NCBI GenBank assembly: GCA_037143475.1
Contig: JBAWYQ010000001.1
Span: forward strand, 30,927-94,926
Reading direction: 5' to 3'
DNA: 64,000 nucleotides
Origin: Burkholderiales bacterium
GTDB lineage: Bacteria > Pseudomonadota > Gammaproteobacteria > Burkholderiales > Burkholderiaceae_C
Shown here: in pieces, positions 485 through 60,392 of the stretch
How the letters are laid out: every line of letters begins with the position of its first letter
How positions within the stretch are numbered: the stretch's first letter is position 1
The notes under the pieces: model-generated
What the model was told of the DNA's origin: nothing
What the model saw: the letters and a program-made list of their open reading frames with translations, nothing else
Database searches by the model: none
Program-made: the position numbers and the translations under genes

Positions 485-2026
485 CTAAAAAGCGTATTTT
501 GCTACCAAAGATACTTGATCGCGATCCGTCACCAGTCGATTCGCCGTTGCGTCCGTCGACGCGCTTCCCAAGTAACCCAAGTATGTCAAACTAATCGCAA
601 GGTTTCCCTTGTAGGTAAAGACGGCGCCTAAGCTAAATCGTCCATCTCCCTCACCTCCGACGCTGCCAATTAGGGTGCGCCCATTTACTTGCTTCGAGTA
701 GTTGATTGGAACTGTAAGATCCCACCCTTCAACGAAGCCCGGGTAACCCAAAACAAGGGTGCCGGAAATAGCAACACCGGAATCCGTCTTGAAGTTGAGA
801 CCGCTCATGGGTACACCGTAGTTGCTGTACTTCACCATTGAGACTTCACCGAGCAGTTGCACCGAGTCCGCGATTGGCATACGCCCAATGTTGGCGAAAC
901 CACCGAAATTTAGCTGAGCCACGTCGGCTGGTGTCGGAGTAGCCAACGCCCCAACTAGAACTGGCGCACCTTGCCGATAAGTCAACTCACTGTAGGCGGC
1001 TACGGACCCCAACACTGTACTAACGGTGGCACCGATCACCTTGACGTCCTCGAAGTACTTGATGTTGTAGCTTCCAGAACTTGCGCTTACCGGTTTAATG
1101 ACGGGCAGAGGCATCCGGTCCCGAGCGTTTAGGTAGTAAAGGCCGGCTTCGGTAACCTCTGTCAAACGGTAGCGGGTACCGATACCCCATTGACCAGTGT
1201 CACCCGGTGTGATGTCCGGACCGCGCAACATACCGAAGCAAGTCGGGCCGGCATAAACCCCCAGGCAAGTACCCCCGGCACCCACACCGTCGGATGTATT
1301 CATAAAGGACCCAGGAGCAGCTGCAAACGTCGGATGAAAGCCAAACTGTGCCTGGGCCATCACTGTCCATCGCGGGCTAATCTCTATCGAGCCTGATATC
1401 TGATCCTCCGGTAGCACCGAGTCTTTAGTTTCGGTACCGGGTACTCCCGCCTTTGTGCCATCAAATGGCCCTTGCGACATGGCAATGTTTGGAAAGTACA
1501 CCGCCTCACCCCAATTGACCACGTGACGGCCCAGACGCACTGTGGCGCGGCTTGAGCTACCGACATCGAACGAAGTGTAGCCGTAGGCATCAAGAATGCG
1601 GCTGTAACCACCGTGGTCATGTTGGGCTTCACTTGTGAACTCGTTGAACGGTGCCGGTTTGCTGACACTGAAAGGCTTCATCGGATTGTCATTTGTCCGG
1701 CGGTAAACCGAGTCATAAAAAGTACTCCCAGATATCACTAGGCCTGAATCTCCTTTAGTCAGTTTTCCTTCGATCAAGGCCGAGACGCGATTTGCCGTCA
1801 TGGATCCTTTAGCAAAGTTATTGTCACCATCGTTTGCAGCAGCATTAGCTGCCAGCAGCGGATCCGCATCCTTCATGCGTTGGGCCGCCGTATACGTTGT
1901 CGTCACGCGCCAGTCCAATTTCAGATCATCCCCCAACTCAATGGTTTCACCGGCATGTGCCATCGCTGTTGCAGTCAGGGTCAGAACGGCCACAGCAACC
2001 GACGTCAGTTTGTTTATCTTGGTCAT
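485..2026 (-). CDS. DUF1302-family outer-membrane beta-barrel protein
   Basis: 513-aa ORF with signal peptide MTKINKLTSVAVAVLTLTATAMAHA. Alternating G/Y/T-rich beta-strand pattern and aromatic C-terminus (...VAKYAF). Lies directly downstream of a DUF1329 gene, the usual partner. Confidence 0.8.
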   Translation of the reverse strand: MTKINKLTSVAVAVLTLTATAMAHAGETIELGDDLKLDWRVTTTYTAAQRMKDADPLLAANAAANDGDNNFAKGSMTANRVSALIEGKLTKGDSGLVISGSTFYDSVYRRTNDNPMKPFSVSKPAPFNEFTSEAQHDHGGYSRILDAYGYTSFDVGSSSRATVRLGRHVVNWGEAVYFPNIAMSQGPFDGTKAGVPGTETKDSVLPEDQISGSIEISPRWTVMAQAQFGFHPTFAAAPGSFMNTSDGVGAGGTCLGVYAGPTCFGMLRGPDITPGDTGQWGIGTRYRLTEVTEAGLYYLNARDRMPLPVIKPVSASSGSYNIKYFEDVKVIGATVSTVLGSVAAYSELTYRQGAPVLVGALATPTPADVAQLNFGGFANIGRMPIADSVQLLGEVSMVKYSNYGVPMSGLNFKTDSGVAISGTLVLGYPGFVEGWDLTVPINYSKQVNGRTLIGSVGGEGDGRFSLGAVFTYKGNLAISLTYLGYLGSASTDATANRLVTDRDQVSLVAKYAF

Positions 2027-2050
2027 GAAATATTCCTTGTGGTGCTGTGA

Positions 2051-3436
2051 TTAGTTGCCGGCGCTTCGCGCGGCTTCGGGGGTAAACATTGCGGGTGTCA
2101 GGTCACCTTTGTTCAGCACCGGGCCCTTGTCGCGCTCCTGGAACAGGTTGTAGCCCACATAGCCACCCGAGTTCAGATCGTGATAGAACGCCGTGCCTGC
2201 CTGCCACCCTTCGATGTCAAAAGCGTAGTAGTGGTTGATGAAGGCGTATTGCCACAAGCTGCCACGGGCATCATAAAAATCTGACATGGCGGCCTGCCAG
2301 GTGTCTTCGTCCAGGAAAAGCACGCGCTTGCCATAGAGGTGGCGAAAGCCTTCGTTCAGCGTGCCTTCAACCGCCCACACGCGACGCAATTCCCAACGAA
2401 TGAAATCGGGGTTGGGCACACCGGGCTTGAGCAGGTCCGCATACTTGACCGTCTTGCCATGCACCTTGTAGCCATTGGCCGGCACAAACATCTCGCGCTT
2501 GCCCAGCAGCTTCCAGTTATAGCGTTCGGGCGAACCGTTGAACATGCGGTCGGAGTCGATTGTCATCTTGCCACCGGTTCCGGCCAGGGGTTGGTCGAAA
2601 CCGTACTCGGGCACCTGGCGAACGCGGCGAGTGCCAGGGTCATAGCTCCAGGCCAGGCGCTTGCCCTTGGCAAAGTTCACCGGCTCTTCCGATACCGAGA
2701 CACCGCCCTTGTCACGCTCGGGCAGCATGGTGACATTTCGGCTGTAAGCCATGACGCCTTCGAGCGGCTGGCCGATGATGGACGTGCCGTTGACCAAGCC
2801 CAGATTGGTGTTGCGCGCGCGGCCCCAGGAGATGGTTCCGTTGGAGAGCACATTGGCCATTTCACGCACGCTGTCTTCGTTGAAGGCACGGTAAGGGAAG
2901 GTGTTGTTGGCCAGCGCTTCGTTGCCGTCCTTGGGCATGGGGAACGGAACTGCTCCCTTGACGGCACCCTTGATACCCAAACCGCTATCAGAGATTTCTG
3001 AATTCAGCGCATTCTTCTTAGCCGCATCACAAACGTAGTCGGGATAGCGGAAATCGCGGTGACCGGGATACACATCCATGCGGAAGGATTTGGGGAACTT
3101 CGCAAACAAGGCCTTTTGACCGTCCGACAATTTTGCCGCGTACTGCGCAACGTTTTCAGGGGTAATGCTGTACAACGGCTTTTCGCCAGCATACGGATCC
3201 ACCGGATGTTGGCCCACGTGTTTTGTATACGCAATGCCGGGTGGAGTACCCAACCATTTGCCTGAAAATTCTGGGATGCTGCCATCCTTGTTGGCAGTCT
3301 TTTCAGCGCCTACGCAAGTCAGATCTTTGCCCAGTTTGTCCGCCTCAGCGGCAGGCACCTTGGCCCATGCGGCAGTGGCCATCGCCAGGCTGATGGCCAG
3401 AGCGGCAGTCGCCGTGTTCCCTACTCGTTTAATCAT
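2051..3436 (-). CDS. DUF1329-family (LolA-like) periplasmic/outer-membrane protein
   Basis: The ORF track runs to 3577, but ATG at 3436 has an AGGAG RBS and starts a clean signal peptide (MIKRVGNTATAALAISLAMATAAWA). GAVPFPMPKDGNEA block is typical of DUF1329. Confidence 0.8.
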   Translation of the reverse strand: MIKRVGNTATAALAISLAMATAAWAKVPAAEADKLGKDLTCVGAEKTANKDGSIPEFSGKWLGTPPGIAYTKHVGQHPVDPYAGEKPLYSITPENVAQYAAKLSDGQKALFAKFPKSFRMDVYPGHRDFRYPDYVCDAAKKNALNSEISDSGLGIKGAVKGAVPFPMPKDGNEALANNTFPYRAFNEDSVREMANVLSNGTISWGRARNTNLGLVNGTSIIGQPLEGVMAYSRNVTMLPERDKGGVSVSEEPVNFAKGKRLAWSYDPGTRRVRQVPEYGFDQPLAGTGGKMTIDSDRMFNGSPERYNWKLLGKREMFVPANGYKVHGKTVKYADLLKPGVPNPDFIRWELRRVWAVEGTLNEGFRHLYGKRVLFLDEDTWQAAMSDFYDARGSLWQYAFINHYYAFDIEGWQAGTAFYHDLNSGGYVGYNLFQERDKGPVLNKGDLTPAMFTPEAARSAGN

Positions 3437-3574
3437 CGAAGTCTCCTTGTCATTCATGAATTTCGGCCAGTGCGCCACGGTCCGTGGCAATCGATTCGGT
3501 AGGCTAGCGAGGCGACTGCTGCGCAGATCACACGAATTCGATAATTGAATTGTTGGCGTTTGTCTCGCTTCGCT

Positions 3575-3594
3575 CATCGTCTATTTAGACTAAT
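3575..3594. promoter_or_regulatory. Island dyad site A: CATCGTCTATTTAGACTAAT
   Basis: Intergenic, between the CoA ligase stop (3616) and the DUF1329 start (3436), 139 nt upstream of that start. Near-identical to sites at 49371 and 52757. Confidence 0.55.
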
Positions 3595-3615: not shown

Positions 3616-5343
3616 TTATTCCGGCCGCGAAAACTCCCGCTTGAGTATCGACTTGAGCAGCTTGCCTGTGGGATTGCGAGGCAATGGATCGCTGCGCACA
3701 TACACGCGCACAGGCACCTTGTAAGCGGCGAGACGGCCGGCCACAAAGGCCTGCACAGCTGCAGCATCCATATCAAAACCAGGCGCCAATACAACCGCGG
3801 CCACCACCGCCTCACCCGTTATCTCGTCGGCCTGTGAAAATACTGCAGCCTCGATAACTTGAGGATGTTGCAGCAGGCACGATTCCACCTCGGCGGCGGC
3901 AATTTTTTCGCCGCTGCGGTTGATCACATCTTTGATGCGATCAACCACGTGCAGGAAGCCATCGGCATCGAGCAGACCCACATCGCCTGAGCGGAACCAG
4001 GAGTCCTGCAGGGCTTGCGCTGTGGCCTCGGGCTGGCCCCAATAGCCCTCCATCACGGTGACGCCGCGCAGCCAAATTTCACCAGGTTCGCCCGCCGGCA
4101 GATCATGGCCCTGCGGGTCCACAATGCGTATTTCGACGATGGGCGAGGTAGGCCCGGCCGTTGCCGGGCGCAACTGGAACAAAGTGCCGGAAGCGGCCGC
4201 GCCCACGCCATTGGTTTCGGTCAGGCCAAAGCCGATGCCCGAGAGCGAATCGGCGCGCCGCGTCAGCACGTCATCAATCAGGCGCTGCGACAAACCCGCA
4301 CCGCCAAAACCCAGCCCACCCAGCGTGCCGGTGATGGCCGGATCATCGAACGCAACGTGGCGCAACAGCTGCTGAACCATGGCCGGTGCGCCGTTGAATT
4401 GCGTGACCCGCTCGGCCTGTATCAGCGCCAGTGCCGCAACCGGATCCCAGCGGTGCATCAGAACTAATCGGCGGCCGTGGCGCAGCGCAGTGAGCAACTG
4501 CGCGTGCAAACCGCTGACATGGAACAGTGGCACCGCAGACAGCGTGGTGGGCTGCAGGCCACGCGCCATGATGACAGCCAGCGCCTCGGGCGAGGTGATG
4601 GCTGAGATAGCGCCGATGTAATCAATGTTGAACAAGGCCTGGCATACCGCACGCTGATTGGACAACACGCCCTTGGCCTGGCTGGTGGCGCCGGAGGTAA
4701 AGAGAATCAGCGCCGGGTCCTGGGCCGTCAATGCAGGGGGCTGCACTTCCGGTGCTCCGGTTTTGATCAATGCCGGCCATTCATATTTGCCACCCGCCGC
4801 ATCCACCACGATGGCCTGGCATTGCAGTGCTGCCAGGTCAGATGCCACGCGCTGGTGGCGTTCGTGATCGCAGATCAGCCAACCCGGCTTCACGCTTTGC
4901 AGGTTGGCCAGCAACTCGTCGCGCAAGCCAAAGCTGTTCAAGGGCGCCGGCACGGCACCAATCAGGGCCACCGCCGCAAACGCCACGGCCCACTCCGGAC
5001 GGTTACGCATGGCGATCGCCACGCGGTCTCCTGTACACAGACCGTGTTCAGCCTGCAAACGTCCGGCCAGAGCATCTACCGCGGCAAAAAAACGCTCGAA
5101 GGTCCAGCGGTCGTTCTGGTAAACCATGAACTCTTTCGGGCCATGGGACCGCCCCGCATTGATCAGGGCGGGCAGGTTGGTAAATGCGTTTCGATAGGCT
5201 GGTAGCGACTGTTCGCCCCACTGCACTCTTTTCAGCTCAAACGGAGCACCTGGCCCGGTAAGTTGGGCACGGGCTGTGGCAGCCAGCGACAGCAGGGCCT
5301 GCTCTGCGCTTACGCCATTCGTTTGGGAATCGGTAATGGCCAT
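3616..5343 (-). CDS. Acyl-CoA synthetase (AMP-forming; steroid/bile-acid side-chain CoA ligase candidate)
   Basis: 575 aa. AMP-binding motif LILFTSGATSQAKGV, GYWG and SGD blocks, C-terminal PRNPTGKLLK. The ATG overlaps the upstream TAA (TAATG at 5341-5345). Confidence 0.9.
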   Translation of the reverse strand: MAITDSQTNGVSAEQALLSLAATARAQLTGPGAPFELKRVQWGEQSLPAYRNAFTNLPALINAGRSHGPKEFMVYQNDRWTFERFFAAVDALAGRLQAEHGLCTGDRVAIAMRNRPEWAVAFAAVALIGAVPAPLNSFGLRDELLANLQSVKPGWLICDHERHQRVASDLAALQCQAIVVDAAGGKYEWPALIKTGAPEVQPPALTAQDPALILFTSGATSQAKGVLSNQRAVCQALFNIDYIGAISAITSPEALAVIMARGLQPTTLSAVPLFHVSGLHAQLLTALRHGRRLVLMHRWDPVAALALIQAERVTQFNGAPAMVQQLLRHVAFDDPAITGTLGGLGFGGAGLSQRLIDDVLTRRADSLSGIGFGLTETNGVGAAASGTLFQLRPATAGPTSPIVEIRIVDPQGHDLPAGEPGEIWLRGVTVMEGYWGQPEATAQALQDSWFRSGDVGLLDADGFLHVVDRIKDVINRSGEKIAAAEVESCLLQHPQVIEAAVFSQADEITGEAVVAAVVLAPGFDMDAAAVQAFVAGRLAAYKVPVRVYVRSDPLPRNPTGKLLKSILKREFSRPE

Positions 5344-6467
5344 TAAAAACCCCTTAACTGTGCGTAGCGATCGCGGTGGAAGATTCCGTCACCCAGTGTG
5401 TGCTGCAGCATGCGCGCCCGTTTAACAAACAGGCCCAAGTCAAACTCATCGGTAACCCCTATGCCGCCATGCAGTTGCACGGCTTCGTTGAGCACCTTCT
5501 CGCACATATCCGAGGCGCGCGCCTTGGCAATGCTTGCCAGTATGGGCAGGTCGGCAGCATCCGAATCGATAGCTGCCAGCGCCGCACGCACACAACTCTC
5601 CAGCAGCTCCAACTCAACGTACAGGCGTGCCACCCGGTGCTGCAAGGCTTGAAAGCTGCCGATCACCACGTCGAACTGGACACGCTCCTTCAAATACGAC
5701 ACCGTGCGTTCAAACGCTTCGCGAGTCAGACCCATCGCTTCAGCGGCCAGGCAAATGCGTGCACGGTCCAGGGCTGCGTCCAGAGACAACGCCGCATCGT
5801 CAGCGGCGCACAATCGCCTGTCATCTGCCACACGCACACCCTGAAACTGAACGCGCGCACTGTTGCGGCTATCGACCATACGGATGCGCTGCAGCGAGAC
5901 GCCATGGTCTGTCGCGTCGACCACAAACAGGCCCAGGCTTTGGTCCTCCAGACATGCCGTGACGATCAGTTGCTGCGCACCCACTGCGTCCAGCACAAAC
6001 CATTTCTCGCCATCCAGCACCCAGGCATCGCCCTCGCGACGGGCGCGGGTATGCACCGGGCGGGGCGTGTGGCGGCCACTTTCTTCCAGCGCCAGAGCAA
6101 AGCGCTGCGTGCCATCCATCAGGACCGGCAACCAACGCGCCTGTTGTCCGGCGCTGGCACTGCGCAGCAGCAACTCGCCACACAGCACTACCTGGGACAG
6201 CAGCGGCAGGGCCGAAAGGTTACGGCCCATCAACTCAAACACGGTGCCCAGGCCGGCATAGCCCACGCCCAGTCCGCCACGATCCTCGGGGAAAACAGCG
6301 GCAAGCCAGCCCAGCTCAATCGCCTGCTTCCACACCGTCTGCTCATAGCCGAGAGCCACATCGCCATCACGCAGATGGCGCTGTAGTGACACCGGGGCTT
6401 GCCCCTGCAGAAAGTCGCGCGCACTGTCGCGCAACATGCTTTGCTCTTCACTCAATAAGAAAGTCAT
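5343..6467 (-). CDS. Acyl-CoA dehydrogenase, beta-type subunit of a probable heteromeric ACAD
   Basis: 374 aa with an ACAD fold throughout. Lacks the C-terminal (S/T)xEIQxN..A.R.LG.P motif seen in its upstream neighbour. Confidence 0.85.
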   Translation of the reverse strand: MTFLLSEEQSMLRDSARDFLQGQAPVSLQRHLRDGDVALGYEQTVWKQAIELGWLAAVFPEDRGGLGVGYAGLGTVFELMGRNLSALPLLSQVVLCGELLLRSASAGQQARWLPVLMDGTQRFALALEESGRHTPRPVHTRARREGDAWVLDGEKWFVLDAVGAQQLIVTACLEDQSLGLFVVDATDHGVSLQRIRMVDSRNSARVQFQGVRVADDRRLCAADDAALSLDAALDRARICLAAEAMGLTREAFERTVSYLKERVQFDVVIGSFQALQHRVARLYVELELLESCVRAALAAIDSDAADLPILASIAKARASDMCEKVLNEAVQLHGGIGVTDEFDLGLFVKRARMLQHTLGDGIFHRDRYAQLRGF

Positions 6468-6498
6468 CTCGGTCTCTATTCTTTATAAGAAGTGCGCA

Positions 6499-7743
6499 TC
6501 AACCCGGCAAGCCCAGCACGCGCTTGGCAATGATGTTGAGTTGAATTTCGGAGCTGCCGCCGGCAATCGTGTAGCTCTTGGACAGCAGCCAGCTGCGGCA
6601 AATGTCATGCTCGCCGGTGCTAAATTCATCACCCTGCCAGCTTAAAGACCGCTGAGCCAGCACCTGTGTCAGCAGCTCGTACTTGGCAACTTCCTGCTCG
6701 GTCTGCAGCAGCTTCATGATGGAAGCCGGGCCACTGATGTCCTGCCCCGCCATGGCCTGCTCCTTGACCCGCACATGCGTCAGGCCAAAGGCTTGTGCAT
6801 CCATCAGGCAAGCTGCCAGCCGGTCGCGCAGCACGGCGGCCTGCGCCGAGCCCGACCCGGCCTGTTCGGCCTGCAAATAGGGCCGCGCCACGGCCAGCGC
6901 ATCATGCGACGGTGCGCCACCCTCGGTGAACTTGGACATGGCAGCACGCTCGTGCTGCAACAGCTTTTTGCCCACGCCCCAGCCTTCGCCCACGGTACCC
7001 AGCACCTGGCGCACCGGGGTTGTGACATTGTCAAAAAAGACCTGGCAAAAGCCCGACTTGCCACCGATCAGCTCAATCGGTTTGACCGTGATGCCTGGGC
7101 TCTTCATGTCGATCAGCATGAAGCTAATGCCCTGCTGCTTGCGCGCGCTGGCATCGGTGCGCACCAGGGCATACATCCAGTCGGCCTTGTCGGCGTCCGA
7201 GGTCCAGATCTTGGAGCCGTTGATGATGTAGTGGTCACCCGCCACATCCAGTTTGGCCGCGGTTTTCAGGCTGGCCAGGTCGGAGCCGGCGTTGGGTTCC
7301 GAAAATCCCTGGCACCAGCGCCTGCTGCCCTGCATCATCGGAATCAGGTGTTCGCGCTTTTGTGCATCGGTGCCCAGTTCCAGCAGCACCGGCCCCAGCA
7401 TCCAGATGCCCAGGTTGTATTGCGGCTGCCGACAGCCCAGACGGGCCATTTCTTCTTCCACGATGCGGGTCTGGCGTGCATTCAGACCGCCACCGCCAAG
7501 CTCTTTTGGCCAACCCGGCGCAAACCAGCCACGCTCGCGCATGCGCTCAAACCACAGGCGCTGATCTTCATTGGCAAACACCAGCTGTGAGCCGCCCCAC
7601 ACCATCTCAGCAGAGGTTATCGGTGTACGCAGGCTGACCGGGCAATTGGCCTGCAGCCATTGCGCCGTCTCGGCGCGAAAGGTATCGTTATTCGTCAATT
7701 GAAACTCCCATGGGGTGGTGACATCAAACTGAAACGATGACAA
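6499..7743 (-). CDS. Acyl-CoA dehydrogenase, alpha-type subunit
   Basis: 414-aa ORF with C-terminal IAGGSSEIQLNIIAKRVLGLPG. The true start is probably TTG at 7698: GGGAG lies 6 nt upstream, there is a TTGA overlap with the upstream stop, and homology to paralogues begins there. Confidence 0.9.
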   Translation of the reverse strand: MSSFQFDVTTPWEFQLTNNDTFRAETAQWLQANCPVSLRTPITSAEMVWGGSQLVFANEDQRLWFERMRERGWFAPGWPKELGGGGLNARQTRIVEEEMARLGCRQPQYNLGIWMLGPVLLELGTDAQKREHLIPMMQGSRRWCQGFSEPNAGSDLASLKTAAKLDVAGDHYIINGSKIWTSDADKADWMYALVRTDASARKQQGISFMLIDMKSPGITVKPIELIGGKSGFCQVFFDNVTTPVRQVLGTVGEGWGVGKKLLQHERAAMSKFTEGGAPSHDALAVARPYLQAEQAGSGSAQAAVLRDRLAACLMDAQAFGLTHVRVKEQAMAGQDISGPASIMKLLQTEQEVAKYELLTQVLAQRSLSWQGDEFSTGEHDICRSWLLSKSYTIAGGSSEIQLNIIAKRVLGLPG

Positions 7744-11797: not shown

Positions 11798-11816
11798 GGC
11801 TTCTCGTTGTTAGGGT

Positions 11817-12995: not shown

Positions 12996-13019
12996 GGGTT
13001 TAAAACTCCTGGCGCTGCA

Positions 13020-14568: not shown

Positions 14569-14577
14569 CGCTCCTCC

Positions 14578-16361: not shown

Positions 16362-16394
16362 GGCATTGAATTTACGGACACCGCCCTTTACCCG

Positions 16395-44718: not shown

Positions 44719-44730
44719 AGTTGGATTTCT

Positions 44731-47491: not shown

Positions 47492-47502
47492 ACCGTACTC
47501 GC

Positions 47503-49301: not shown

Positions 49302-49370
49302 GTTATGTTCCTTGTGCCCCGTCGGATCAGGGCCTATGCGTTTGATTGTGTGAAGACAAGGTCGGTGCAA

Positions 49371-49390
49371 CATCGTCCATTGAGACTAAC
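49371..49390. promoter_or_regulatory. Island dyad site H: CATCGTCCATTGAGACTAAC
   Basis: 70 nt upstream of the tesB ATG, in the 164-nt gap after the OYE gene. Confidence 0.55.
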
Positions 49391-51943: not shown

Positions 51944-51953
51944 GGCGACCTCC

Positions 51954-52688: not shown

Positions 52689-52756
52689 CTTTTGCTCCTG
52701 TGCAAGGCCGCCACTCGACCTGTTGCCAACAGCGTAGGGCGTTCCCGTATTGCCGC

Positions 52757-52776
52757 CATCGTCCAATGAGACTAAA
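52757..52776. promoter_or_regulatory. Island dyad site I: CATCGTCCAATGAGACTAAA
   Basis: 69 nt upstream of the SDR ATG (52688), at the outer edge of the island. Confidence 0.55.
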
Positions 52777-52827
52777 AATATTTCGGAGGCGCTCTGCCAC
52801 CTATGAGTGTCGAGTCAAGGGTTGACA

Positions 52828-52847
52828 CCTAGTCCAAGGAGACGAAT
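52828..52847. promoter_or_regulatory. Island dyad site J (weaker): CCTAGTCCAAGGAGACGAAT
   Basis: 71 bp beyond site I and 140 nt upstream of the same ATG. TAGTC-type left arm, GACGAAT right arm. Confidence 0.4.
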
Positions 52848-52957
52848 TGGGTGAATGGATTTAAGGGCATGCTTTGGTATCCAACTGGAATGCTTTGGCC
52901 AATTCGGGTAAATGATTATTCTGGTTCGCTCCCATCAAGCCCACTACAAGGTTCAAA

Positions 52958-53182
52958 ATGAATATCTATGGCGTTTGCAAGATCACTGTTGTATTTTTAT
53001 TGGCAATTTTGCTTGTTGCGTCGGTATTCGCGAATCTATCTTTTGGGCGATGGCCGTCATTTGAATTCAATTTCCATTCTGTTGAAACCACTCAGAAATC
53101 AGCGTATGGCACGCCGTTGAACGATCCCAATCACTTGGGTAGCTTGTCATTCTGGACTCTGATGTACAACGCCTATCGTTAG
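52958..53182 (+). CDS. Hypothetical small membrane protein
   Basis: 74-aa ORF with one hydrophobic helix (ITVVFLLAILLVASVFA) and a weak AAGG RBS. Followed by the hairpin CGACCTCAgaaaTGAGGTCG at 53223-53242. No homology recognised. Confidence 0.3.
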   Translation: MNIYGVCKITVVFLLAILLVASVFANLSFGRWPSFEFNFHSVETTQKSAYGTPLNDPNHLGSLSFWTLMYNAYR

Positions 53183-53589
53183 ATGAGTAGGGAAGTAAAG
53201 AACCTTCCACCTCAACGTTGTTCGACCTCAGAAATGAGGTCGCCATGGGAACAACCCGTGTGTCCAATAGAAACATCTGAGAACCAATTCACCAATGATG
53301 GAAGCCGTCCCTCGCTTACGGTCACCGAGTCTTGTCATTCCGGCCTATGACTGCTCGCGATGGACTAGTCATTCTTTGTTCGGGGAGCAATTTAACCGTG
53401 ACTGATGTGTCGCGTTTCCCATTTCGCGCAAACTGGACGAATCTCAAACGGCAGTACCTCCATTTTCCTTCAACCTGCGCTGCTGCTTGAACTGCTTTTT
53501 GCTCTGCCAAGCTGATGCATTTTCAGATGCTTCGCTGGTAAGTAGCGATTTTTGTATGCACTTTCTTCGACAGTACAGGTTTAACTAGC

Positions 53590-54852
53590 ATGACCAACTC
53601 ACTTGGCAAAACAAACGAACTCTCTATGCCTCAGACAAAACAATTGCAGACTGCCATTCGAACAACCAGAGCACCGGCATACAGTACCGACCCGGTGGTC
53701 AGAACGCATGTTCCCGAAGTTGCCACTAGGGATAGACAATCAATGCTGGAATCCTTTAGTCGGCAGGACCTGCTCGAGAAACCAACGCTGATCTACCCTT
53801 TTGAGAGCGCGCCGAAAGTAGGTGAAACTATAGAGATCGCACCGGGTGTTTATTGGATGCGCATGCCGCTTCCCTTTGTGTTAACACACATCAATGTATG
53901 GCGTCTCGAAGACGAAAACGGCTGGGCCATTGTGGACACGGGGATGAAAACAGACGAGACACTGGCGGTGTGGCGCAACTTTTTTTCCCAAGATGTCGCC
54001 GAAACCCGCCCTCTAACACGCATATTCTGTACCCACATGCACCCAGACCATATTGGGCTATCTGGGTGGTTGACACGCAAGTTCAGTTGCCAATTGTGGA
54101 TGACCCAACTGGAATATCTGAACTGCCGTGTTCTCACTGCCGACACAGGACGCGAGGCTTCAGAGAGTGGCATTCAGTTCTATTTGAGAGCTGGGTGGAG
54201 CGCGGTCGCTATACAAGGCTATCGGGAACGATTTGGCAACTTCGGCAAACACATTCATGCATTGCCCGAGAGCTATCGCCGAATTCGGGACAGAGAAGAA
54301 ATCAAGATTGGCGCCAATACATGGCGCGTTATTGTTGGAACTGGCCATTCTCTTGAGCATGCCTGTCTCTATTGCTCGGATTTGAAGCTGCTTATCTCTG
54401 GGGACCAAGTACTTCCCCGTATTTCATCCAATGTGTCGGTGCATCCAACAGAACCCGATGCAAATCCCATGCAGGAGTGGATGGAGTCTCTGGCGAAAAT
54501 AAAGCGAGAAGTGCCTGACGATGTCTTGGTTCTGCCTGCGCACAACGACTGTTTTAGGGGTCTTCATGCGCGCATCGACTATTTGGCAGAATCACAAAAT
54601 CGAGCTCTCAATAGATTGCGGAAAAATCTCGTGGAGCCGAAACGAGTCGTCGACGTATTTACCTCATTGTTTGACCGTGCCATCGAGGAATCTGATGGAG
54701 GATTGCTTCAATTGGCCACAGGAGAAGGCGTGGCTTGCCTGAACTATCTGTTCCATCGCGGCGAGATCACACGAGAGATTGATGGAAGTGGCGTTGCTCT
54801 ATATCAGATCGTCAAAAGTGTAAAAACCGTCGATGCAATCAAACACCTCTGA
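53590..54852 (+). CDS. MBL-fold metallo-hydrolase, diverged paralogue of 7695-8846
   Basis: HxHxDH (CTHMHPDHIG) and GHSLEH. Collinear with the island copy from TLIYPF to ALYQI (roughly 35-45% identity by eye). The start may be ATG 53743. Visibly lower G+C than the island copy. Confidence 0.85.
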   Translation: MTNSLGKTNELSMPQTKQLQTAIRTTRAPAYSTDPVVRTHVPEVATRDRQSMLESFSRQDLLEKPTLIYPFESAPKVGETIEIAPGVYWMRMPLPFVLTHINVWRLEDENGWAIVDTGMKTDETLAVWRNFFSQDVAETRPLTRIFCTHMHPDHIGLSGWLTRKFSCQLWMTQLEYLNCRVLTADTGREASESGIQFYLRAGWSAVAIQGYRERFGNFGKHIHALPESYRRIRDREEIKIGANTWRVIVGTGHSLEHACLYCSDLKLLISGDQVLPRISSNVSVHPTEPDANPMQEWMESLAKIKREVPDDVLVLPAHNDCFRGLHARIDYLAESQNRALNRLRKNLVEPKRVVDVFTSLFDRAIEESDGGLLQLATGEGVACLNYLFHRGEITREIDGSGVALYQIVKSVKTVDAIKHL

Positions 54853-54994
54853 CTTGACGGTCCTGCCTGTTGGCGTAGATGTGGCGCTTGATTCGCTCGT
54901 TCTTGAGACTGCTGACGAACGACTCTGCAACCGCATCGTCCCAACAGTTTCCAAGGCGACTCATGCTGGGCACGAGTTGGTTGTCAAGCCAATG
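54799..54994 (-). pseudogene. IS3-family transposase (OrfB C-terminal) remnant
   Basis: The minus strand reads HWLDNQLVPSMSRLGNCWDDAVAESFVSSLKNERIKRHIYA, then after a frameshift KSEVFDCIDGFY. This matches the conserved SMSRKGNCWDNAVAESFF..LK.E / ..IFDYIE.FYN end of IS3 transposases. No start and no catalytic core. Confidence 0.65.
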
Positions 54995-55114
54995 ACAAGG
55001 TCAGCACCTTCTCGAACACAAATATGTTCTCTATCGTGGGGATTTTTCATAACATCAACATCGTCATATGCAGGTCGTTACATCTACCGAGCGACCAATA
55101 GTTGAGTCTTACCC

Positions 55115-55513
55115 ATGGACCGTTTTGTTTCAGGCTGTGACAGCCAAAGTTGGCCGCTAATTGTTTCCTTTGGGATCCGTGAAGAGTGGATTGACCACTT
55201 GATAGAGAGCACACAAGGAACTCGAGCTGAAGCGATGAAATGGTTCGTTTTTGGTACTCAAATGCGTTCACTTAGAGAGTTAGACCTGAAATGGCGAGGC
55301 TCCATAGAATTGATGATTGCCTGCATACCAGCTTTTGACGAAAACATGATTAATATCGCATTCACCATTCTCGAAAATGAGGGTGCGAAGCTAGGCAGTT
55401 GTGTTTGGCTGGATGGAACCGGACTTGTTTCCAAACAAGCATGCCGATGCGCACGGGTAATACAGGTTGACGACCGCGGAATCGAGGGCATCGCACTTGA
55501 ACTTTTCCAGTGA
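55115..55513 (+). CDS. Hypothetical protein
   Basis: 132-aa ORF in the low-G+C region. No RBS or homology recognised. Confidence 0.25.
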   Translation: MDRFVSGCDSQSWPLIVSFGIREEWIDHLIESTQGTRAEAMKWFVFGTQMRSLRELDLKWRGSIELMIACIPAFDENMINIAFTILENEGAKLGSCVWLDGTGLVSKQACRCARVIQVDDRGIEGIALELFQ

Positions 55514-56067
55514 GCGTCGACTCCTTCAGTCATTTGTATTGCGGTGCAATTTGAATCCGTGAATGGAGCTTCACTTCGGTAATCTGTCGCCAACTCTACG
55601 GCGGTTTAACACGGCCATCGGCAAACTCAAGATACAGACTCAACACCTGGCATCAACAGATGTGAGGTGTCTCCCATGCGAATGTCCCCCGATGGCGTGC
55701 TTGGTGCGCTGCTGCGCAAACCAGCACCGCTCCCCAAGCAACCCACCGCGCCGACCTTGCCATGTGCTGGCCGGGTGCGCGATACGGTGAGCAGATGGCC
55801 CAATGCACCGTGCGCGGTCACCAGGTACTCCTTTGCAAAAAGTAGGACGAATTTGCCTGCACCAACGGGTAGAACGAATCTATGCGGAGTACGAATTGCA
55901 CGATAGCCCTCAGATAATTCGCACTAACTTAGGGTTGTTCTGAGGTGACGGTTACCGCATTTTTCGCTGGGCCGACAAGATGTAGGCGTAGGGTCACAGG
56001 ATCGCCTTCGCCGAACTTGACGGAGACTGTCGAATTAGACGGCTTATCAGTCAAACTCAGGTCAACG

Positions 56068-57420
56068 TCACCCTTGTGCAGCAGCGATAGCTAGGATGTC
56101 ATCTGAGCTCGGCTTGAACCAATCTGGACCAATTAGCTGAACGCCCAAGAATTTGACGAACGTTTCGCGGACCATTGAATGATTCCAGCCTGACGTGTCA
56201 AATCGTTTTAGGAAATGTGGCAGGTTCGCTCCTGAAAGTTCAGCTCTGAAATCTACCAAAAATTTCTGTTTTTCCAGATCCGTCAGTTCGTCAAAACCGC
56301 GCAATAGGTCAGCTTTTCGGGAGCGCAGCCAAGTTTCTGTCCACGCCGCCTTGCGTTTTTTCATCTCTTCAGCGCTGATTTGCTTGGTCATAGGCGAAGA
56401 GGCCACTAACCTCGCGTGTTTCGCTTTTCGCTCCAAGTTATCTTTCAACCAGCTCGCTGGCTTCCTAACCTCCCCTACAACGGCCACCGGCATTTCAAGT
56501 CTTCGAACCAGGTCATCAACAGCTGAGGTCAACGGCGCTCGACCATGCTTTCGCAAGAGGTCTTCTGCCTGCTCCTGCTTCACGCCTGCTGAGATTGCCC
56601 GTCCAATCACCGGTAGATCCTGTGGAGTTACGTCGTGTAGTGGAGGTCTGACGTCCCTAGAATTCTTTTCTGCCTTGAACCAGACTTGAAATTGGATCTC
56701 AGATACAGTTTTGTTATCGCGCTCCTTGTGTTCGATTGGCCCCTTTACTTCGATGTTGGTGCGCTCATTGATTTCAGCAATCGCACGGTTCAACACATCG
56801 CGCTTAAAGAAACGGTATTCCGATTTCGTGTCGTCGCCCGCATAACCCGTGAGAACTGGCTTCCACCAGCGCCAATGCTGCCGCGCAGTCTTATGGCCGG
56901 GGTTGTCAACGTATCGGGCGCAAATCTCGTACAGTGCCATTGCAGCATGCGATGACAACTGCGTGATTGCTTCAATTGATAGCCGGGCATAGCGATCCGG
57001 ACTAAGAAGTTGCGAGCGAACCTTTGAATCAAAGCGCCACCGGATCGTCACGGCCCCGGAGCGTTTATCTTTCGTAATGCCTGCACCACTCAAGAGATTG
57101 CACGCGTCCCAAGTCTCTATTTCGCCGCTGGACGGGCTTTGCCACTCCACTGTCGTGGACATAAGTTCTTTAAGGATCTTCTTTAGCGGGGCAGTATCCT
57201 TGCTGTTGTAGTCAGCGTCGCTGATCACCTCATGGAGCCTGGCTTCATATTCCTCTTGCTCACCTTCATCTTGAGATCTGTGCAAGAGAACGTTAAAGAG
57301 TCGGCGCCCGAGCAATGAAATCCTGCGACCACCCTGCACTGGCATCAGCGCAACGGCATTTACGTGTTTCAACAGAATGTCATCAGCGTCGTCGGGGTGA
57401 AAAAGGCTTGGCTGATCCAT
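56068..57420 (-). CDS. repA: Plasmid replication initiator (iteron-binding Rep_3/RepA type)
   Basis: 450 aa. The N-terminal region (KHVNAVALMPVQGGRRISLLGRRLFNVLLH ... LYEICARY ... FKRDVLNRAIAEINERTNIEV) follows the winged-helix Rep pattern. Iterons lie immediately upstream and parAB is adjacent. Confidence 0.8.
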   Translation of the reverse strand: MDQPSLFHPDDADDILLKHVNAVALMPVQGGRRISLLGRRLFNVLLHRSQDEGEQEEYEARLHEVISDADYNSKDTAPLKKILKELMSTTVEWQSPSSGEIETWDACNLLSGAGITKDKRSGAVTIRWRFDSKVRSQLLSPDRYARLSIEAITQLSSHAAMALYEICARYVDNPGHKTARQHWRWWKPVLTGYAGDDTKSEYRFFKRDVLNRAIAEINERTNIEVKGPIEHKERDNKTVSEIQFQVWFKAEKNSRDVRPPLHDVTPQDLPVIGRAISAGVKQEQAEDLLRKHGRAPLTSAVDDLVRRLEMPVAVVGEVRKPASWLKDNLERKAKHARLVASSPMTKQISAEEMKKRKAAWTETWLRSRKADLLRGFDELTDLEKQKFLVDFRAELSGANLPHFLKRFDTSGWNHSMVRETFVKFLGVQLIGPDWFKPSSDDILAIAAAQG

Positions 57421-57491
57421 TTTGGAATGATACGAGTAAACGTGAGGGAATAATAGTCAAACTTCTCACATACTACATATTTGATTCTGAT

Positions 57492-57513
57492 CCCTGTTGA
57501 GTCTCACACATTT
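57492..57513. repeat. Isolated iteron copy (CCCTGTTGAGTCTCACACATTT) in the repA promoter region
   Basis: Matches the tandem iterons at 57677-57764, 72 nt upstream of the repA ATG. Confidence 0.6.
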
Positions 57514-57676
57514 GCTGACTGGTACAGCTTGTTGAGGATTGGTAAACACTAAAGCGCCAAAATTCAGGTGCAAACAGTCTCCAACAGTTGCTGACCTTCC
57601 CATACGTGAGTGGAAAAGAGGATCAAATATGAGCATCTAGGTATGGGCTGGCACCCTCAAATTCACTCTCGCTTAC

Positions 57677-57764
57677 CCCTTAATCATCTCACGCATATCC
57701 CTAATTTGTCTCCACTGAAGCCCTGTTTCATCTCACCTTGAGCCCTGTTGAGCCTCACGTATTC
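57677..57764. repeat. Four tandem 22-bp iterons (candidate oriV)
   Basis: Exact 22-bp phasing at 57677, 57699, 57721 and 57743: CCCTTAATCATCTCACGCATAT / CCCTAATTTGTCTCCACTGAAG / CCCTGTTTCATCTCACCTTGAG / CCCTGTTGAGCCTCACGTATTC. Shared CCCT....(T/C)CTC(A/C)C core. Confidence 0.75.
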
Positions 57765-58032
57765 ACATGCAAACCGTTGTCAGCATTGAAGATTTGGTAC
57801 GGCAAAGGTATTAAAGGCATTGAATGGATTCCTAGAGTTATAAACCCATCCCGTTCGGAGTTTCAAACTTCCAGAGATCCAACAGCCGTCATCAATGATG
57901 AATTTTTAGCAGCGACAAGGCAACTTGAACAATATTCTTCAGAAAAATTGATTTTCATTGCTGATATTGAAGAAAGCTAGCAAAATTACGACTGTTCAGA
58001 ATTTCTACCACTCTTCAATAGAGCTAATAAAT

Positions 58033-59226
58033 ATGGCAACAAAATCCGAGCTGCTTCTTCTCCCTGAGAGTTTGGCTGATGTCATGACTCAGGCCGACAA
58101 AGCTAGCTACATGATGAACGCCGTGCGAGGCGCCCTCCTCGCTCCTGAAAACAGGAAACAGGCCCCCCATTTCAATACGACGGAGTTGGCGGCGCTTTGC
58201 GATGCTGACCGCTCTCAGATAGTTTACAGATCGTCAAAGGGCGATCTGCCTGCAGGTACCATCAATCCTGGCGGGAACCGACGAACATTCACGTTGGAAG
58301 ATGCAATGCCCTGGATCCGTGAGTTTCGTGCTGATCAACTTCGCCCCAAGGGTGCTCATGCTGTTTGTATCTCTGTCGCGAATTTCAAAGGAGGCGTCGG
58401 CAAAACAACAACGGCTATGACTCTGGCGCAGGGCCTCGCTCTCAAGGGCCATAAAGTTTTGGTTCTAGACTGCGATCCTCAAGGCTCACTTACGACTCTT
58501 TTCGGAATCCTTCCAGATACTGAGGTTGATGAATCTCAGACGATCCTCCCGGTTTGTCTGGGCCAAGAAAGTAGCATCGCCCCATCTATTCAAAACACAT
58601 ACTGGCCTGGCCTGGATCTGGTCTGCGCTGCTCCCCTCCTCTTCGCGGCTGAGTTCGGACTTCCTGCACGGCAAATGCGAGAAACAGACTTTGAGTTTTG
58701 GAATGTTTTGAATCAGGCACTCGATGATGTTCGTGAGGAGTACGACGTGATCATTATCGATACGCCGCCTGCTTTATCCTATGTCACGATTAACGCTTTG
58801 ATGGCTAGTGATGGCATCTTGATGCCCCTGCCGCCCAACGCACTTGATGCGGCCTCTGCTGCGCAGTTTTGGCGGTTATTTTCTGATTTGGCCGGTCAAC
58901 TTGTCGAACAACGCGGCGTGACCAAGAGCTTCGATTTCGTGCGAGTATTACTAACTCGCGTCGATAGTCAGGACTCTACGACTGCGACCATCAGGGACTG
59001 GATCAGTAAGACATACGAAGGGAAAGTCTTGCCAGCTGAGATTCCAAAGACGACTGTAGCAAGCTCCAGTTCTGCTGAGTTTGGTACTGTCTATGACGTT
59101 GCCAAATATGACGGTAGTCAAAAGACATACAAACGCGCACGCGACGCTTATGAGCGTGTTTCAGAGTTGATGGAAGAGATTATTCGTGCTACGTGGCGCC
59201 GCCAAGTAGCTGAAGGAGGGGAATAG
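58033..59226 (+). CDS. parA: ParA partition ATPase (type Ia, with N-terminal extension)
   Basis: ATG 58033 (MATKSELLL). Deviant Walker A ANFKGGVGKTTTA and Walker A' LVLDCDPQGS. Confidence 0.9.
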   Translation: MATKSELLLLPESLADVMTQADKASYMMNAVRGALLAPENRKQAPHFNTTELAALCDADRSQIVYRSSKGDLPAGTINPGGNRRTFTLEDAMPWIREFRADQLRPKGAHAVCISVANFKGGVGKTTTAMTLAQGLALKGHKVLVLDCDPQGSLTTLFGILPDTEVDESQTILPVCLGQESSIAPSIQNTYWPGLDLVCAAPLLFAAEFGLPARQMRETDFEFWNVLNQALDDVREEYDVIIIDTPPALSYVTINALMASDGILMPLPPNALDAASAAQFWRLFSDLAGQLVEQRGVTKSFDFVRVLLTRVDSQDSTTATIRDWISKTYEGKVLPAEIPKTTVASSSSAEFGTVYDVAKYDGSQKTYKRARDAYERVSELMEEIIRATWRRQVAEGGE

Positions 59227-59228
59227 TT

Positions 59229-60305
59229 GTGGCCAAGAAGATTAATGAAAAGACGGCTGGCATCAGCCTTGCTGGATTCCAGCCACGTAGTCAGGGTGGG
59301 CAAATTGAGCCACCCTCCCCTCCTCGGCAATCTCTTGTTGACCGTATGCCTTCCTCCGTTGCAGCTGATGGTTTGGCACCCTCCCCTGCTCGAGTTGCTT
59401 CAAAATCTTTCACTGGCGCTGGCATTTTTATGTCGGCCATTACCGGAAAAGATGACGTTTCAAAGGAGCTGGCCGACGTACAAGCAAAGCTAGAGCAATT
59501 CAAAGGAGCTGAGATTACTCGCGCTTTGGATCCAAAGCTGGTTCATCCAAGTAAGTGGGCCAATCGAAGTGAACTATCGTTCAAATCCTCGGACTTCGAA
59601 AATCTGAAGTCTGAAATTGAATCTGCGGGGGGCAATGTTCAGCCCATTAAAGTGCGTCCGGTTAGTGGTGCTCGGGGTGATTTTGAGATCGTCTTTGGAC
59701 ATCGTCGTCATCGTGCTTGCTTGGAGTTGGGGCTCCCCGTACTGGCATTGATAGAGGAATTAAACGATGTGGCGCTGTTCTCACAGATGGACAGGGAGAA
59801 TCGGCAACGTGCTGATTTGCGCCCTTTCGAGCAAGGCGTCATGTATGCGCGTGCGCTCGATGAGGGGCTTTTCCCGTCTTTGCGGAAAATGAGTGAAGCT
59901 CTGGGTGTTGACGTTGGAAATGCGAGTAAGGCGATTTCATTGGCTCGGCTGCCGGCTTCGATTTTATCTTGTTTTTCGTCTCCTCTCGATCTTCAACAGG
60001 CATGGGCAACGGATCTGTCTGTGGCTCTTCAAAAGGACCCGGATATCGTTTTGGGTAGGGCACGTAAGCTTTCCCAAATGGTGGAAAAGGAATCGGCTGT
60101 AAACATATTCAAGGAGCTGATCGGCAAGGGTGTTGTTTCAAACAACACCCCTAATCCTGAGCCGTTGCAGATCAAAGGGCCAGGCGGCCGGACGGGAACA
60201 ATTGGATTCAACTCGAAGAAAAAAACATTTGAGATCTGCCTTACTGGCCTAGACTTAACCCAGATGGCGACTATCGAGGCCTCTATTCGGAAGCTGCTGG
60301 CTTGA
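59229..60305 (+). CDS. parB: ParB partition protein
   Basis: GTG start with GGAGGGG RBS, 2 nt after the parA stop. ParB-box IVFGHRRHRACLELG; HTH region LRKMSEALGVDVGNASKAISLARLP. Confidence 0.9.
   Translation: MAKKINEKTAGISLAGFQPRSQGGQIEPPSPPRQSLVDRMPSSVAADGLAPSPARVASKSFTGAGIFMSAITGKDDVSKELADVQAKLEQFKGAEITRALDPKLVHPSKWANRSELSFKSSDFENLKSEIESAGGNVQPIKVRPVSGARGDFEIVFGHRRHRACLELGLPVLALIEELNDVALFSQMDRENRQRADLRPFEQGVMYARALDEGLFPSLRKMSEALGVDVGNASKAISLARLPASILSCFSSPLDLQQAWATDLSVALQKDPDIVLGRARKLSQMVEKESAVNIFKELIGKGVVSNNTPNPEPLQIKGPGGRTGTIGFNSKKKTFEICLTGLDLTQMATIEASIRKLLA
60128..60150. other. parS-like palindrome 1 (inside parB coding sequence)
   Basis: GGGTGTTGTTTCAAACAACACCC, 11-nt arms around a central C. 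Confidence 0.55.
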
Positions 60306-60311
60306 TCATGT

Positions 60312-60338
60312 AGGGGTGTTGTTTCAAACAACACCCCT
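60312..60338. other. parS-like palindrome 2 (7 nt after parB stop)
   Basis: AGGGGTGTTGTTTCAAACAACACCCCT, perfect 13-nt arms with the same core as 60128-60150. Confidence 0.6.
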
Positions 60339-60350
60339 CACAACTCCCTA

Positions 60351-60392
60351 AGACCCTGCGAGGTCCGAGCGCCTTCGCAGGGTCTCTTTCTG
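60351..60392 (+). terminator. Probable parAB terminator hairpin
   Basis: AGACCCTGCGA-13 nt loop-TCGCAGGGTCT (11-bp stem) followed by CTTTCT. Confidence 0.55.

Follow-up and report, generated by a model that had tools for sequence, protein, structure and literature searches.

The 64-kb stretch of Burkholderiales DNA studied here (64,000 nucleotides, referred to as the window) carries a large cluster of steroid/bile-acid catabolic genes and, approximately 3.3 kb from it, a plasmid-type replication and partition module with repA, an iteron origin, parA, parB and candidate parS sites. The DNA probably derives from an iteron plasmid with theta replication and a low copy number, at least 103 kb in size (in the order of 100–150 kb), which resided in a Rhodoferax-like freshwater host of the Comamonadaceae and had the steroid pathway as its cargo; we hold this view with moderate confidence. 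A narrower version of it, in which a single plasmid of approximately 100–130 kb from a cold-freshwater Rhodoferax lineage carries the entire pathway, from uptake and regulation to the side-chain, A/B-ring and C/D-ring genes, as swappable cargo on a widespread backbone, is put forward tentatively.

The window corresponds, in reverse complement, to positions 3,766–67,765 of the European Nucleotide Archive metagenome contig ERZ27299960:k141_527784 (102,578 bp; record position = 67,766 − window position), which extends 34.8 kb beyond the left edge of the window and 3.8 kb beyond the right one. The protein-level scans and the search for conjugation genes covered 83 kb of this contig, up to record position 82.7 kb. 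Shorter contigs built independently in the Logan assembly of run SRR7053571 were 100 % identical to the source contig. One of them, a single unbranched contig of 5,871 bp (L002), corresponds to positions 51,649–57,519 of the window at 100 % identity. Since it spans both the change in base composition and the point at 55,901 where homology to related plasmids breaks off, the steroid cluster is physically joined to the replicon module. The GC content is 0.62 up to approximately 52.8 kb and 0.50 beyond. The backbone has a GC content of 0.50 in the window and in the sister plasmids described below, and the cargo 0.62 here versus 0.57–0.61 in the sisters; the same contrast between low-GC backbone and higher-GC cargo in those plasmids indicates that the GC step is characteristic of this plasmid family and did not arise during assembly. 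Both halves of the sequence point to a Rhodoferax-like host, as the closest RepA relatives are found in Rhodoferax metagenome-assembled genomes (MAGs) and the TesA1 protein encoded on the contig is nearest to that of Rhodoferax lacus (86 %), other Comamonadaceae TesA1 proteins being approximately 80 % identical.

The conserved module of 4.7 kb (55901–60564) comprises repA, oriV, parA, parB and parS. The repA gene (56068–57420, minus strand) is intact and encodes a Rep_3 initiator of 450 aa with WH1 and WH2 domains, recognized by Rep3_N (PF01051, E 6e-14) and Rep3_C (PF21205, E 4e-8), both over their gathering scores. Its stop codon lies 3.3 kb from the last short-chain dehydrogenase/reductase (SDR) gene of the steroid cluster (end 52766), in agreement with the position and spacing proposed in the initial annotation. 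The oriV/operator region (57441–57765, plus strand) is situated within the 537-bp spacer between repA and parA. It contains five 22-bp iterons with the core CCCTnnTnnnnCTCAC, spaced by exactly 22 bp and starting at 57655, 57677, 57699, 57721 and 57743, one further direct copy at 57492–57507, and inverted copies of the core at 57442 and 57606 (57606–57610). The CCCTnnTnnnnCTCAC motif occurs ten times in the window versus 3.0 times expected, a count reached in none of 100 shuffled sequences, and four of the ten matches fall into 57492–57758 at multiples of 22 bp. The array is kept column by column in an alignment of nine related loci, with conserved cores and variable spacers, so the phased iterons noticed at first reading are real. 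Tandem Repeats Finder run over 52.7–64 kb reported no repeats because the iterons are too degenerate; they were found by the motif search and the alignment.

An inverted pair, GTGAG(19 nt)CTCAC, occupies positions 57442–57470 (CTCAC at 57466), 22–50 bp upstream of the repA start, and is kept in all aligned loci; it would be expected to serve repA autoregulation. An outlying iteron copy with an exact match to the motif is located downstream of parB (60401–60416, minus strand) and is conserved in two relatives (L007 and L009). It is a possible handcuffing/copy-control site. GC minima of 0.33–0.38 flank the iteron array. Scans for promoters and terminators gave counts at or under the shuffle expectation.

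The parA and parB genes are divergent from repA and accompany it in all relatives. The parA gene (57958 or 58033 to 59226, plus strand) encodes a Walker ATPase of approximately 400 aa with matches to AAA_31, CbiA and ParA, and the product of parB (59229–60305, plus strand) has ParB_N and SopB_HTH domains; with these domains the two genes form a type-Ia partition pair. A 19-bp palindrome, GTGTTGTTTCAAACAACAC, is present in two identical copies, with 0.01 expected by chance, one inside the 3′ end of parB (60130–60148) and the other 11 bp past its stop codon (60316–60334). All relatives with a ParB of 61 % identity or more have the two copies in corresponding positions, whereas relatives with ParB 47–50 % identical have two or three copies of a different palindrome, e.g. 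GTGTTTGACSGTCAAACAC. The co-variation of palindrome and ParB clade, together with conservation inside otherwise diverged DNA, speaks for ParB-binding parS rather than a plain terminator, and the GTGTTGTTTCAAACAACAC copies are accordingly candidate centromere sites. The parA, parB and parS-like palindromes listed in the initial annotation were thus all recovered. Each ParB clade among the relatives has its own repeated palindrome in or beside parB, e.g. GTGTTTGACCGTCAAACAC, TGGTTGACCGTCAACCA and TGATTGACCGTCAATCA (L011–L014, L050 and L053), and these ParB-palindrome pairs constitute a natural series of ParB-parS co-variation.

The module recurs in other samples. RepA of 99 % identity is encoded on at least seven contigs from elsewhere, among them the uncultured sister plasmids JGI Ga0558718_05561 (52 kb), Ga0558718_12980 (30 kb) and NCBI JAMIFZ010000210. 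The module is 96.6 % identical at the nucleotide level over 4,667 bp to L044–L048 and 97.2 % identical over 3,838 bp to L049, and the homology to the sister copies ends at both module borders, at 55,901 and 60,564. Beyond repA the sisters carry cargo unrelated to steroids (amidohydrolase, fatty-acid hydroxylase, CoA-ligase and HGD-D/BcrAD genes). Beyond parB they carry the addiction modules PhdYeFM-PIN, CcdAB and AbiE, insertion sequence (IS) elements, Tn3 and integrases; the three addiction modules are not present in the window. In further relatives, DUF3701 integrases, HipA, a DnaB helicase and a type I restriction enzyme occur beside the module. In comparison with a sister copy all three genes are of the same length and the dN/dS ratios are 0.05 for repA, 0.04 for parA and 0.36 for parB. 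Conservation under selection, combined with interchangeable cargo and the presence of addiction genes, is the appearance expected of a plasmid backbone.

The protein database contains 222 RepA homologue clusters at E-values of 1e-100 or lower, and nine RepA loci were found in the GTDB genomes, in MAGs of Rhodoferax and other betaproteobacteria. All nine are accompanied by parAB, and none is flanked by steroid genes. The comparison of RepA with a plasmid database, which had been suggested as a check, was carried out by tblastn and gave 476 PLSDB records. The best two, both at 51 % identity over the full length, were pACP4.3 of Acidovorax carolinensis P4 (114,839 bp, circular, MOBP) and a 181-kb plasmid of Cupriavidus metallidurans, neither with a DNA-level match to the window. 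pACP4.3 has the same parB-parA<->repA layout (int-parB-parA<->repA), but it carries a tyrosine recombinase beside parB and a relaxase, neither of which was seen in the replicon of the window, and lacks steroid genes. Megablast of 52.8–64 kb against PLSDB gave no match, and 28–52.8 kb gave short fragments of 72–84 % identity only, mostly from sphingomonad megaplasmids.

The organization of the module is that of the classical iteron and type-Ia systems, F RepE/SopABC, P1 ParABS, pPS10 and R6K, and of the replicon-specific parS sites of Burkholderia multipartite genomes. The matched features are a WH1-WH2 initiator, phased iterons and an inverted operator located at the rep promoter, as well as a ParA of the large type, a SopB-type HTH in ParB and clade-specific centromere palindromes. 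The module differs from these systems in having no detectable DnaA box and in the two parS copies, one of them inside parB, and its sequence kinship to the F, P1, pPS10 and R6K systems is seen only at the level of Pfam families.

The cargo occupies positions 485–52,766 and, judged by its family and structure matches, is a steroid cluster of the Comamonas testosteroni TA441 type; approximately 50 genes with the minus strand predominating were counted there from the open reading frame (ORF) listing and GC3 analysis. Those matches bore out the gene assignments made at first reading for ksi, hsdA, tesB, the IpdAB/EchA20-like genes, the ChsH/Ltp2-like module and the regulator. The ring-oxidation genes ksi (18647–19027, minus strand) and hsdA (19030–19803, minus strand) are adjacent. 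The former matches the steroid delta-isomerase of C. testosteroni over its full length (PDB 1isk/8cho, E 7e-41) and the latter the 3alpha-hydroxysteroid dehydrogenase (HSD)/carbonyl reductase of the same species (PDB 1fjh, E 3e-109, 257/257 aa aligned). A KshA oxygenase gene absent from the initial annotation was found at 27300–28454 (plus strand; Pfam Rieske and KshA_C, E 1.8e-57). The 83 kb read contained no KshB reductase gene that could be found; in the closest metagenomic relative (L019, 81–95 % protein identity) there is one just past tesH.

The genes assigned to rings C and D form, together with tesB, a minus-strand group at the right-hand side of the cargo. The tesB/hsaC-type extradiol dioxygenase gene (48387–49373) is followed by ipdA (47503–48381) and ipdB (46727–47608), whose best structure match is IpdAB (6co6/6con, E 1e-67 and 9e-49, respectively), and by an echA20-like hydratase gene (45810–46715; PRK08290, 436 bits vs cut-off 280). 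The adjoining region, 34710–45813, annotated by NCBIfam and Pfam, is a predicted scd-like beta-oxidation block for rings C/D and contains genes for a NMO/FabK-like reductase (NMO, nitronate monooxygenase; 44731–45813), an enoyl-CoA hydratase (43963–44718), acyl-CoA dehydrogenases (41703–43991 and 37311–39622), thiolases (40517–41734 and 34710–35918), SDRs (39636–40511 and 36403–37257) and MaoC (35930–36400). On the other side of tesB lie the genes of an old-yellow-enzyme (OYE) reductase (49466–50524), a SnoaL-like protein (50526–51176) and two SDRs (51173–52096 and 51954–52766), all on the minus strand, with which the high-GC cargo ends.

The side-chain genes lie in the left part of the window and are also on the minus strand. 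Those predicted to act in side-chain activation and oxidation (3616–10581) encode a CasG-like acyl-CoA ligase (3616–5343; NCBIfam steroid-24-oyl-CoA synthetase CasG, E 1.5e-105, under the curated cut-off), a small/large pair of acyl-CoA dehydrogenases (5343–7743, NCBIfam pimC/pimD-like), a metallo-beta-lactamase (MBL)-fold protein (7695–8846) and a long-chain acyl-CoA synthetase (8773–10581; PRK08279, 708 bits, over the cut-off). A putative igr/chs-type side-chain cleavage module follows at 10616–15546. It is composed of genes for two acyl-CoA dehydrogenases (10616–11797 and 13411–14568), an Ltp2-like aldolase/thiolase (11817–12995; PRK07855 lipid-transfer protein, 679 bits vs cut-off 469), a MaoC hydratase subunit (13020–13451, PF01575) and a ChsH2-like protein (14578–15546) with the zinc ribbon PF12172 (zf-ChsH2) and PF01796 (OB_ChsH2_C). 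In TA441, ORF40–44 have been described as the igr equivalent (PMC12502768). At the far left, minus-strand genes for DUF1302 (485–2026) and DUF1329 (2051–3577) proteins, recognized as a pair by Pfam PF06980/PF07044, have as neighbours just beyond the window edge an MMPL/Sterol-sensing RND transporter and a BNR protein; together these four would make up a putative set for steroid transport across the envelope.

The remaining genes of the cargo lie between these blocks. EtfAB (19839–21554, minus strand), a BaiCD/OYE-type Fe-S flavoenzyme (21658–23781, plus strand), a 7alpha-HSD-like SDR (23827–24672, minus strand), an aldehyde dehydrogenase (24606–26087, minus strand) and a further SDR (26171–27007, plus strand) were assigned by NCBIfam. 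Pfam identified, within 28547–34648, an EthD protein, two MFS transporters (29226–30767 and 32019–33323), a beta-lactamase/esterase-family ORF (30647–31984, plus strand) and a regulator of the LuxR type that has PAS and GerE domains (33458–34648, minus strand). By its domain type and position the last of these occupies the place of a TesR-like activator and may be its equivalent. The mechanical ORF list overstates two overlapping frames: in the 403-aa ORF at 15582–16793 (minus strand) the SDR domain is confined to residues 149–400, and the true gene probably encodes approximately 255 aa, while the enoyl-CoA hydratase ORF at 16351–17283 (plus strand), whose domain starts at residue 64, occupies the remainder.

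As had been noted, the window itself lacks tesA1A2, tesD-G and tesH. Of the two explanations then offered, that these genes lie outside the window or are missing, the former was correct: the contig carries tesA1A2 and tesD-G, and also the start of tesH, at 10–19 kb left of the window. Read leftward, the RND/MMPL transporter and the BNR protein are followed by a second Ltp/ChsH2 pair, an MFS transporter, tesG, tesF, tesE, tesD, tesA2 and tesA1, and then by a KstD/TesH-like flavoprotein gene, of which the first 126 codons were read. HsaA, HsaB, HsaC and HsaD were the top or near-top NCBIfam matches, yet under their actinobacterial equivalog cut-offs, whereas TesF and TesG scored over theirs; the JGI annotation also gives steroid names to members of the cluster. 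The ring-A oxidation set (HsdA, KSI and the KstD/TesH-like flavoprotein, read to residue 126), the meta-cleavage set (TesB in the window, TesA1A2, TesD and TesEFG to the left of it) and the C/D-ring set (IpdAB, the echA20-like gene and the associated beta-oxidation genes) are present, and the cargo is thus predicted to encode a complete or near-complete 9,10-seco steroid/bile-acid pathway of the TA441 type. In L019 tesH is followed by a second FAD dehydrogenase gene (tesI-like), an SDR gene, a KshB-type reductase gene and a CoA ligase gene, and the stretch of the contig beyond tesH may begin in the same way. A metagenome scan aimed at the left part of the contig yielded relatives of 83 % identity or less only.

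Two other metagenome relatives, L022 and L029, have tesH at approximately 6.5–9 kb from SDR-SDR-SnoaL-OYE genes. These are the genes that in the window form the opposite end of the cluster, beside the replicon, so that the end blocks are approximately 85 kb apart here. The interpretation of this adjacency as a circular permutation, and hence as a sign of circularity, was rejected, as in TA441, too, the two blocks terminate a cluster that is linear and chromosomal, one on either side.

The C. testosteroni TA441 mega-cluster (tes, scd and chs; approximately 120 kb, chromosomal) has the same gene set and the same overall layout: its two ends are formed by tesB-scd and tesG-tesH, and its middle part by hsdA/ksi and side-chain genes (10.64898/2026.09.18.752586). 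The proteins encoded here have diverged and belong to another genus, KshA is in the middle of the cluster, and, above all, the cluster has a plasmid replicon as its neighbour and not chromosomal DNA. Steroid clusters of relatives with large contigs are also on chromosome-sized sequences, e.g. those of Alicycliphilus (4.17 Mb) and Thauera (4.70 Mb). The initial annotation had given these genes as chromosomal in Comamonas strains, which is right for TA441, but plasmid-borne steroid clusters do exist outside that genus, in sphingomonads, Rhodococcus and Vibrio. Bergstrand et al. (2016) gave pRHL1 and two Novosphingobium plasmids as exceptions and proposed plasmid-aided horizontal spread among Proteobacteria (PMC4810484). 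A preprint survey of 2026 had pTomTYG65 as the sole plasmid case and listed Rhodoferax lacus, Polaromonas and other Comamonadaceae with TA441-like clusters (10.64898/2026.09.18.752586).

The search of PLSDB with IpdA (tblastn) gave 33 records, 21 of them from sphingomonads (13 Sphingobium and 8 Novosphingobium) and the others comprising three Vibrio alfacsensis plasmids (68 % identity), secondary replicons of Caballeronia/Burkholderia and several actinomycete records. No Comamonadaceae were among the 33. The sphingomonad megaplasmids (pNL2 of Novosphingobium aromaticivorans, pTomTYG65 and relatives) carry an extrachromosomal pathway of the testosterone/cholate type (PMC4810484); they differ from the present case in belonging to Alphaproteobacteria, in their size of 0.5–1.3 Mb and in their replication systems, and their proteins are 48–61 % identical. 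Closer in size is the circular, 221-kb pYa108 of V. alfacsensis, which like two related plasmids encodes an IpdA 68 % identical to that of the window. In the C/D-ring block, to which the comparison extended, it shares the gene order TesB-IpdA-IpdB-ECH-NMO-ECH-ACAD-ACAD-thiolase-SDR (ECH, enoyl-CoA hydratase; ACAD, acyl-CoA dehydrogenase), but its host is a gammaproteobacterium and its backbone is different. This tesB-ipdAB-echA20-scd-like block of pYa108 (NZ_AP024168.1, 180,595–190,291) is located beside a YoeB/antitoxin pair, and no mention of it was found in the steroid literature searched. Nor did the literature search find a paper that connects steroid genes with plasmids for Rhodoferax or Polaromonas, or one that mentions the accessions of the run and the assembly. 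Plasmid-borne steroid pathways as such are thus already known from sphingomonads, Rhodococcus and the Vibrio plasmid records; what would be new here is the different class of host, the small iteron replicon and the apparently whole pathway on one molecule, and the contig is the first candidate found in Comamonadaceae for a plasmid-borne steroid cluster.

Several observations speak against a plasmid of the proposed kind. The contig was binned into an NCBI MAG named 'Burkholderiales bacterium' (proteins MEI8155232–MEI8155235), which would fit a coverage near that of the chromosome, and the variant carrying steroid genes was seen only in the data of one sequencing run. The contig is open, one of its ends being an IS21 istB fragment with a Nextera adapter. 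No DnaA box was found in oriV (search for TTWTNCACA, 55–61 kb), and annotation of the 83 kb read revealed no relaxase, type IV secretion system or oriT, which leaves the earlier claim that the trait is thereby mobile without support. Distant Rep relatives (30–36 % identity) drive secondary replicons of 0.5–3.5 Mb in Variovorax, Caballeronia and Burkholderia, so that the replicon could far exceed the contig. That point leads to the possibility that replication of a chromid or megaplasmid, several hundred kb to Mb in size, starts at the module and that the steroid cluster is beside this origin by chance; the trait would then reside on an extrachromosomal replicon that is in essence a stable component of the genome. 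This we regard as unlikely, although it deserves consideration: the same broad family of Rep_3 and ParAB also runs such replicons in Ideonella and Mycetohabitans, IpdA homologues reside on replicons of 2–3.5 Mb in Caballeronia and Burkholderia, and the contig is open at both ends and was binned with a MAG. However, it is the 115- and 181-kb plasmids that have the RepA proteins of 51 % identity, the longest contigs with closer RepA variants are approximately 30–130 kb, no housekeeping or core gene was present among the annotated proteins of the 83 kb read, and both the distance between the backbone GC of 0.50 and that of the cargo and the swapping of cargo among sister copies are plasmid-like.

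The chromosomal location of the cluster in Alicycliphilus and Thauera would instead fit a plasmid integrated in the chromosome, its rep/par genes being an inactive passenger beside a chromosomal steroid island. An IS21 element lies 7 kb from parB, IS elements mediate cointegration, and maintenance genes are sparse around the module, which lacks the toxin-antitoxin genes and DUF3701 integrase of its relatives. We nevertheless consider integration improbable. The repA, parA and parB genes are of full length and under purifying selection when compared with a free sister copy, and neither the iterons and the operator nor the two parS copies show any damage, so the decayed relic that the initial annotation had named as its refutation was not borne out; in addition, no integrase, att-like repeat or tRNA was found near the junctions. 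Selection usually also acts against iteron origins that are active within a chromosome. Finally, the backbone and the cluster could have been joined by the assembler from different molecules or organisms. The sharp GC step from 0.62 to 0.50 at approximately 52.8 kb, the metagenomic source and the imperfect read cleaning betrayed by the adapter would allow for it, but the unbranched contig of a second assembler, 100 % identical over 51649–57519, covers both the GC step and the breakpoint at 55901, the sister plasmids show the same GC contrast and both halves are Rhodoferax-like, which makes such a chimera highly improbable. Of the three options in the initial annotation (plasmid, chromid or integrated plasmid), the plasmid-type replicon as such stands, on the full-length genes, the dN/dS of 0.05 and 0.04 and the swapped cargo; the choice among the three was narrowed, with the plasmid as the most likely.

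The sequences flanking the module differ from those of the sister plasmids on both sides. Between cargo and replicon there is a low-GC spacer (53590–55513, plus strand), not common to the sister plasmids, with an MBL-fold gene and small ORFs without matches (e.g. 55115–55513). The MBL-fold gene (53590–54852, plus strand) is a 36 %-identical paralogue (E 4e-79) of the cluster gene at 7695–8846 (minus strand), and a third, shorter MBL gene is located left of the window. Right of the module, an accessory region (60711–63920) contains genes for an AAA_14/DUF4143 ATPase, orf87, orf264 (62478–63272, plus strand) and orf211 (63285–63920, plus strand), and runs on to the partial IS21 istB. The ATPase gene (60711–61892, minus strand) is complete and matches the PADLOC candidate defence family PDC-S01 (E 2e-89); in the sister plasmids with 99 %-identical RepA it is merely a truncated remnant of 86 % nucleotide identity over 625 bp. 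The ORFs of 264, 211, 278, 192 and 439 aa in this part of the contig (62478–63920 and window-equivalent 63,930–66,798) had no match in Pfam, PADLOC or PDB. Part of the 192-aa ORF is 86 % identical at the DNA level to the 442-aa gene of a 680/333/442-aa trio, which stands beside the par genes in several sister plasmids and whose 680-aa protein is named transposase by JGI. The tRNA and Rfam scans of the 64-kb window gave no match.

The partial istB gene encodes an IS21-family helper ATPase (NF038214, 202 bits; window-equivalent 67,141–67,764) and is interrupted by the contig end, where the truncated gene is followed by the Nextera adapter CTGTCTCTTATACACATCTCCGAGCCCACGAGAC (window-equivalent approximately 67,685–67,765). 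The assembly break at this end was probably caused by the repeated IS, and the element could mediate cointegration. The adapter is translated as 'MCIRDR' in a called protein, so the public assembly carries adapter contamination at this site.

If the plasmid functions as its sequence suggests, RepA monomers would bind to the iterons of the array and initiate replication by melting the AT-rich DNA next to it, and RepA dimers on the inverted pair would repress repA. The outlying iteron could add to handcuffing and thereby to copy-number control. ParB would load on the two palindromes and the ParA ATPase would segregate the copies. The cargo would then provide for steroid uptake, ring A oxidation (HsdA, KSI and TesH), ring B opening (KshA), ring A cleavage (TesA1A2, TesB and TesD-G), side-chain removal (CoA ligases and the igr/chs module) and degradation of rings C/D by IpdAB, the EchA20-like protein and the products of the scd-like beta-oxidation genes, probably under the control of the LuxR-type activator. 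Cell-to-cell transfer, if any, would require helper functions not seen in the 83 kb.

In Comamonas and related bacteria, steroid catabolism has been treated as a chromosomal trait, its scattered distribution being ascribed to horizontal transfer with few vehicles known. The value of the present contig in this respect is limited by its open ends and by the lack of transfer functions in the 83 kb read, but a Comamonadaceae backbone common in environmental metagenomes, one variant of which carries the whole pathway, would be a concrete candidate for such a vehicle. The 4.7-kb repA-oriV-parABS module is also a compact candidate for the construction of vectors for Rhodoferax- and Polaromonas-type bacteria. 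If the narrower proposal of a single plasmid bearing the entire pathway is true, one transfer event could turn a non-degrader into a steroid degrader, and the plasmid, the first of its kind in Comamonadaceae, would offer a direct means for the horizontal spread among Proteobacteria that Bergstrand et al. (2016) proposed for this patchily distributed pathway.

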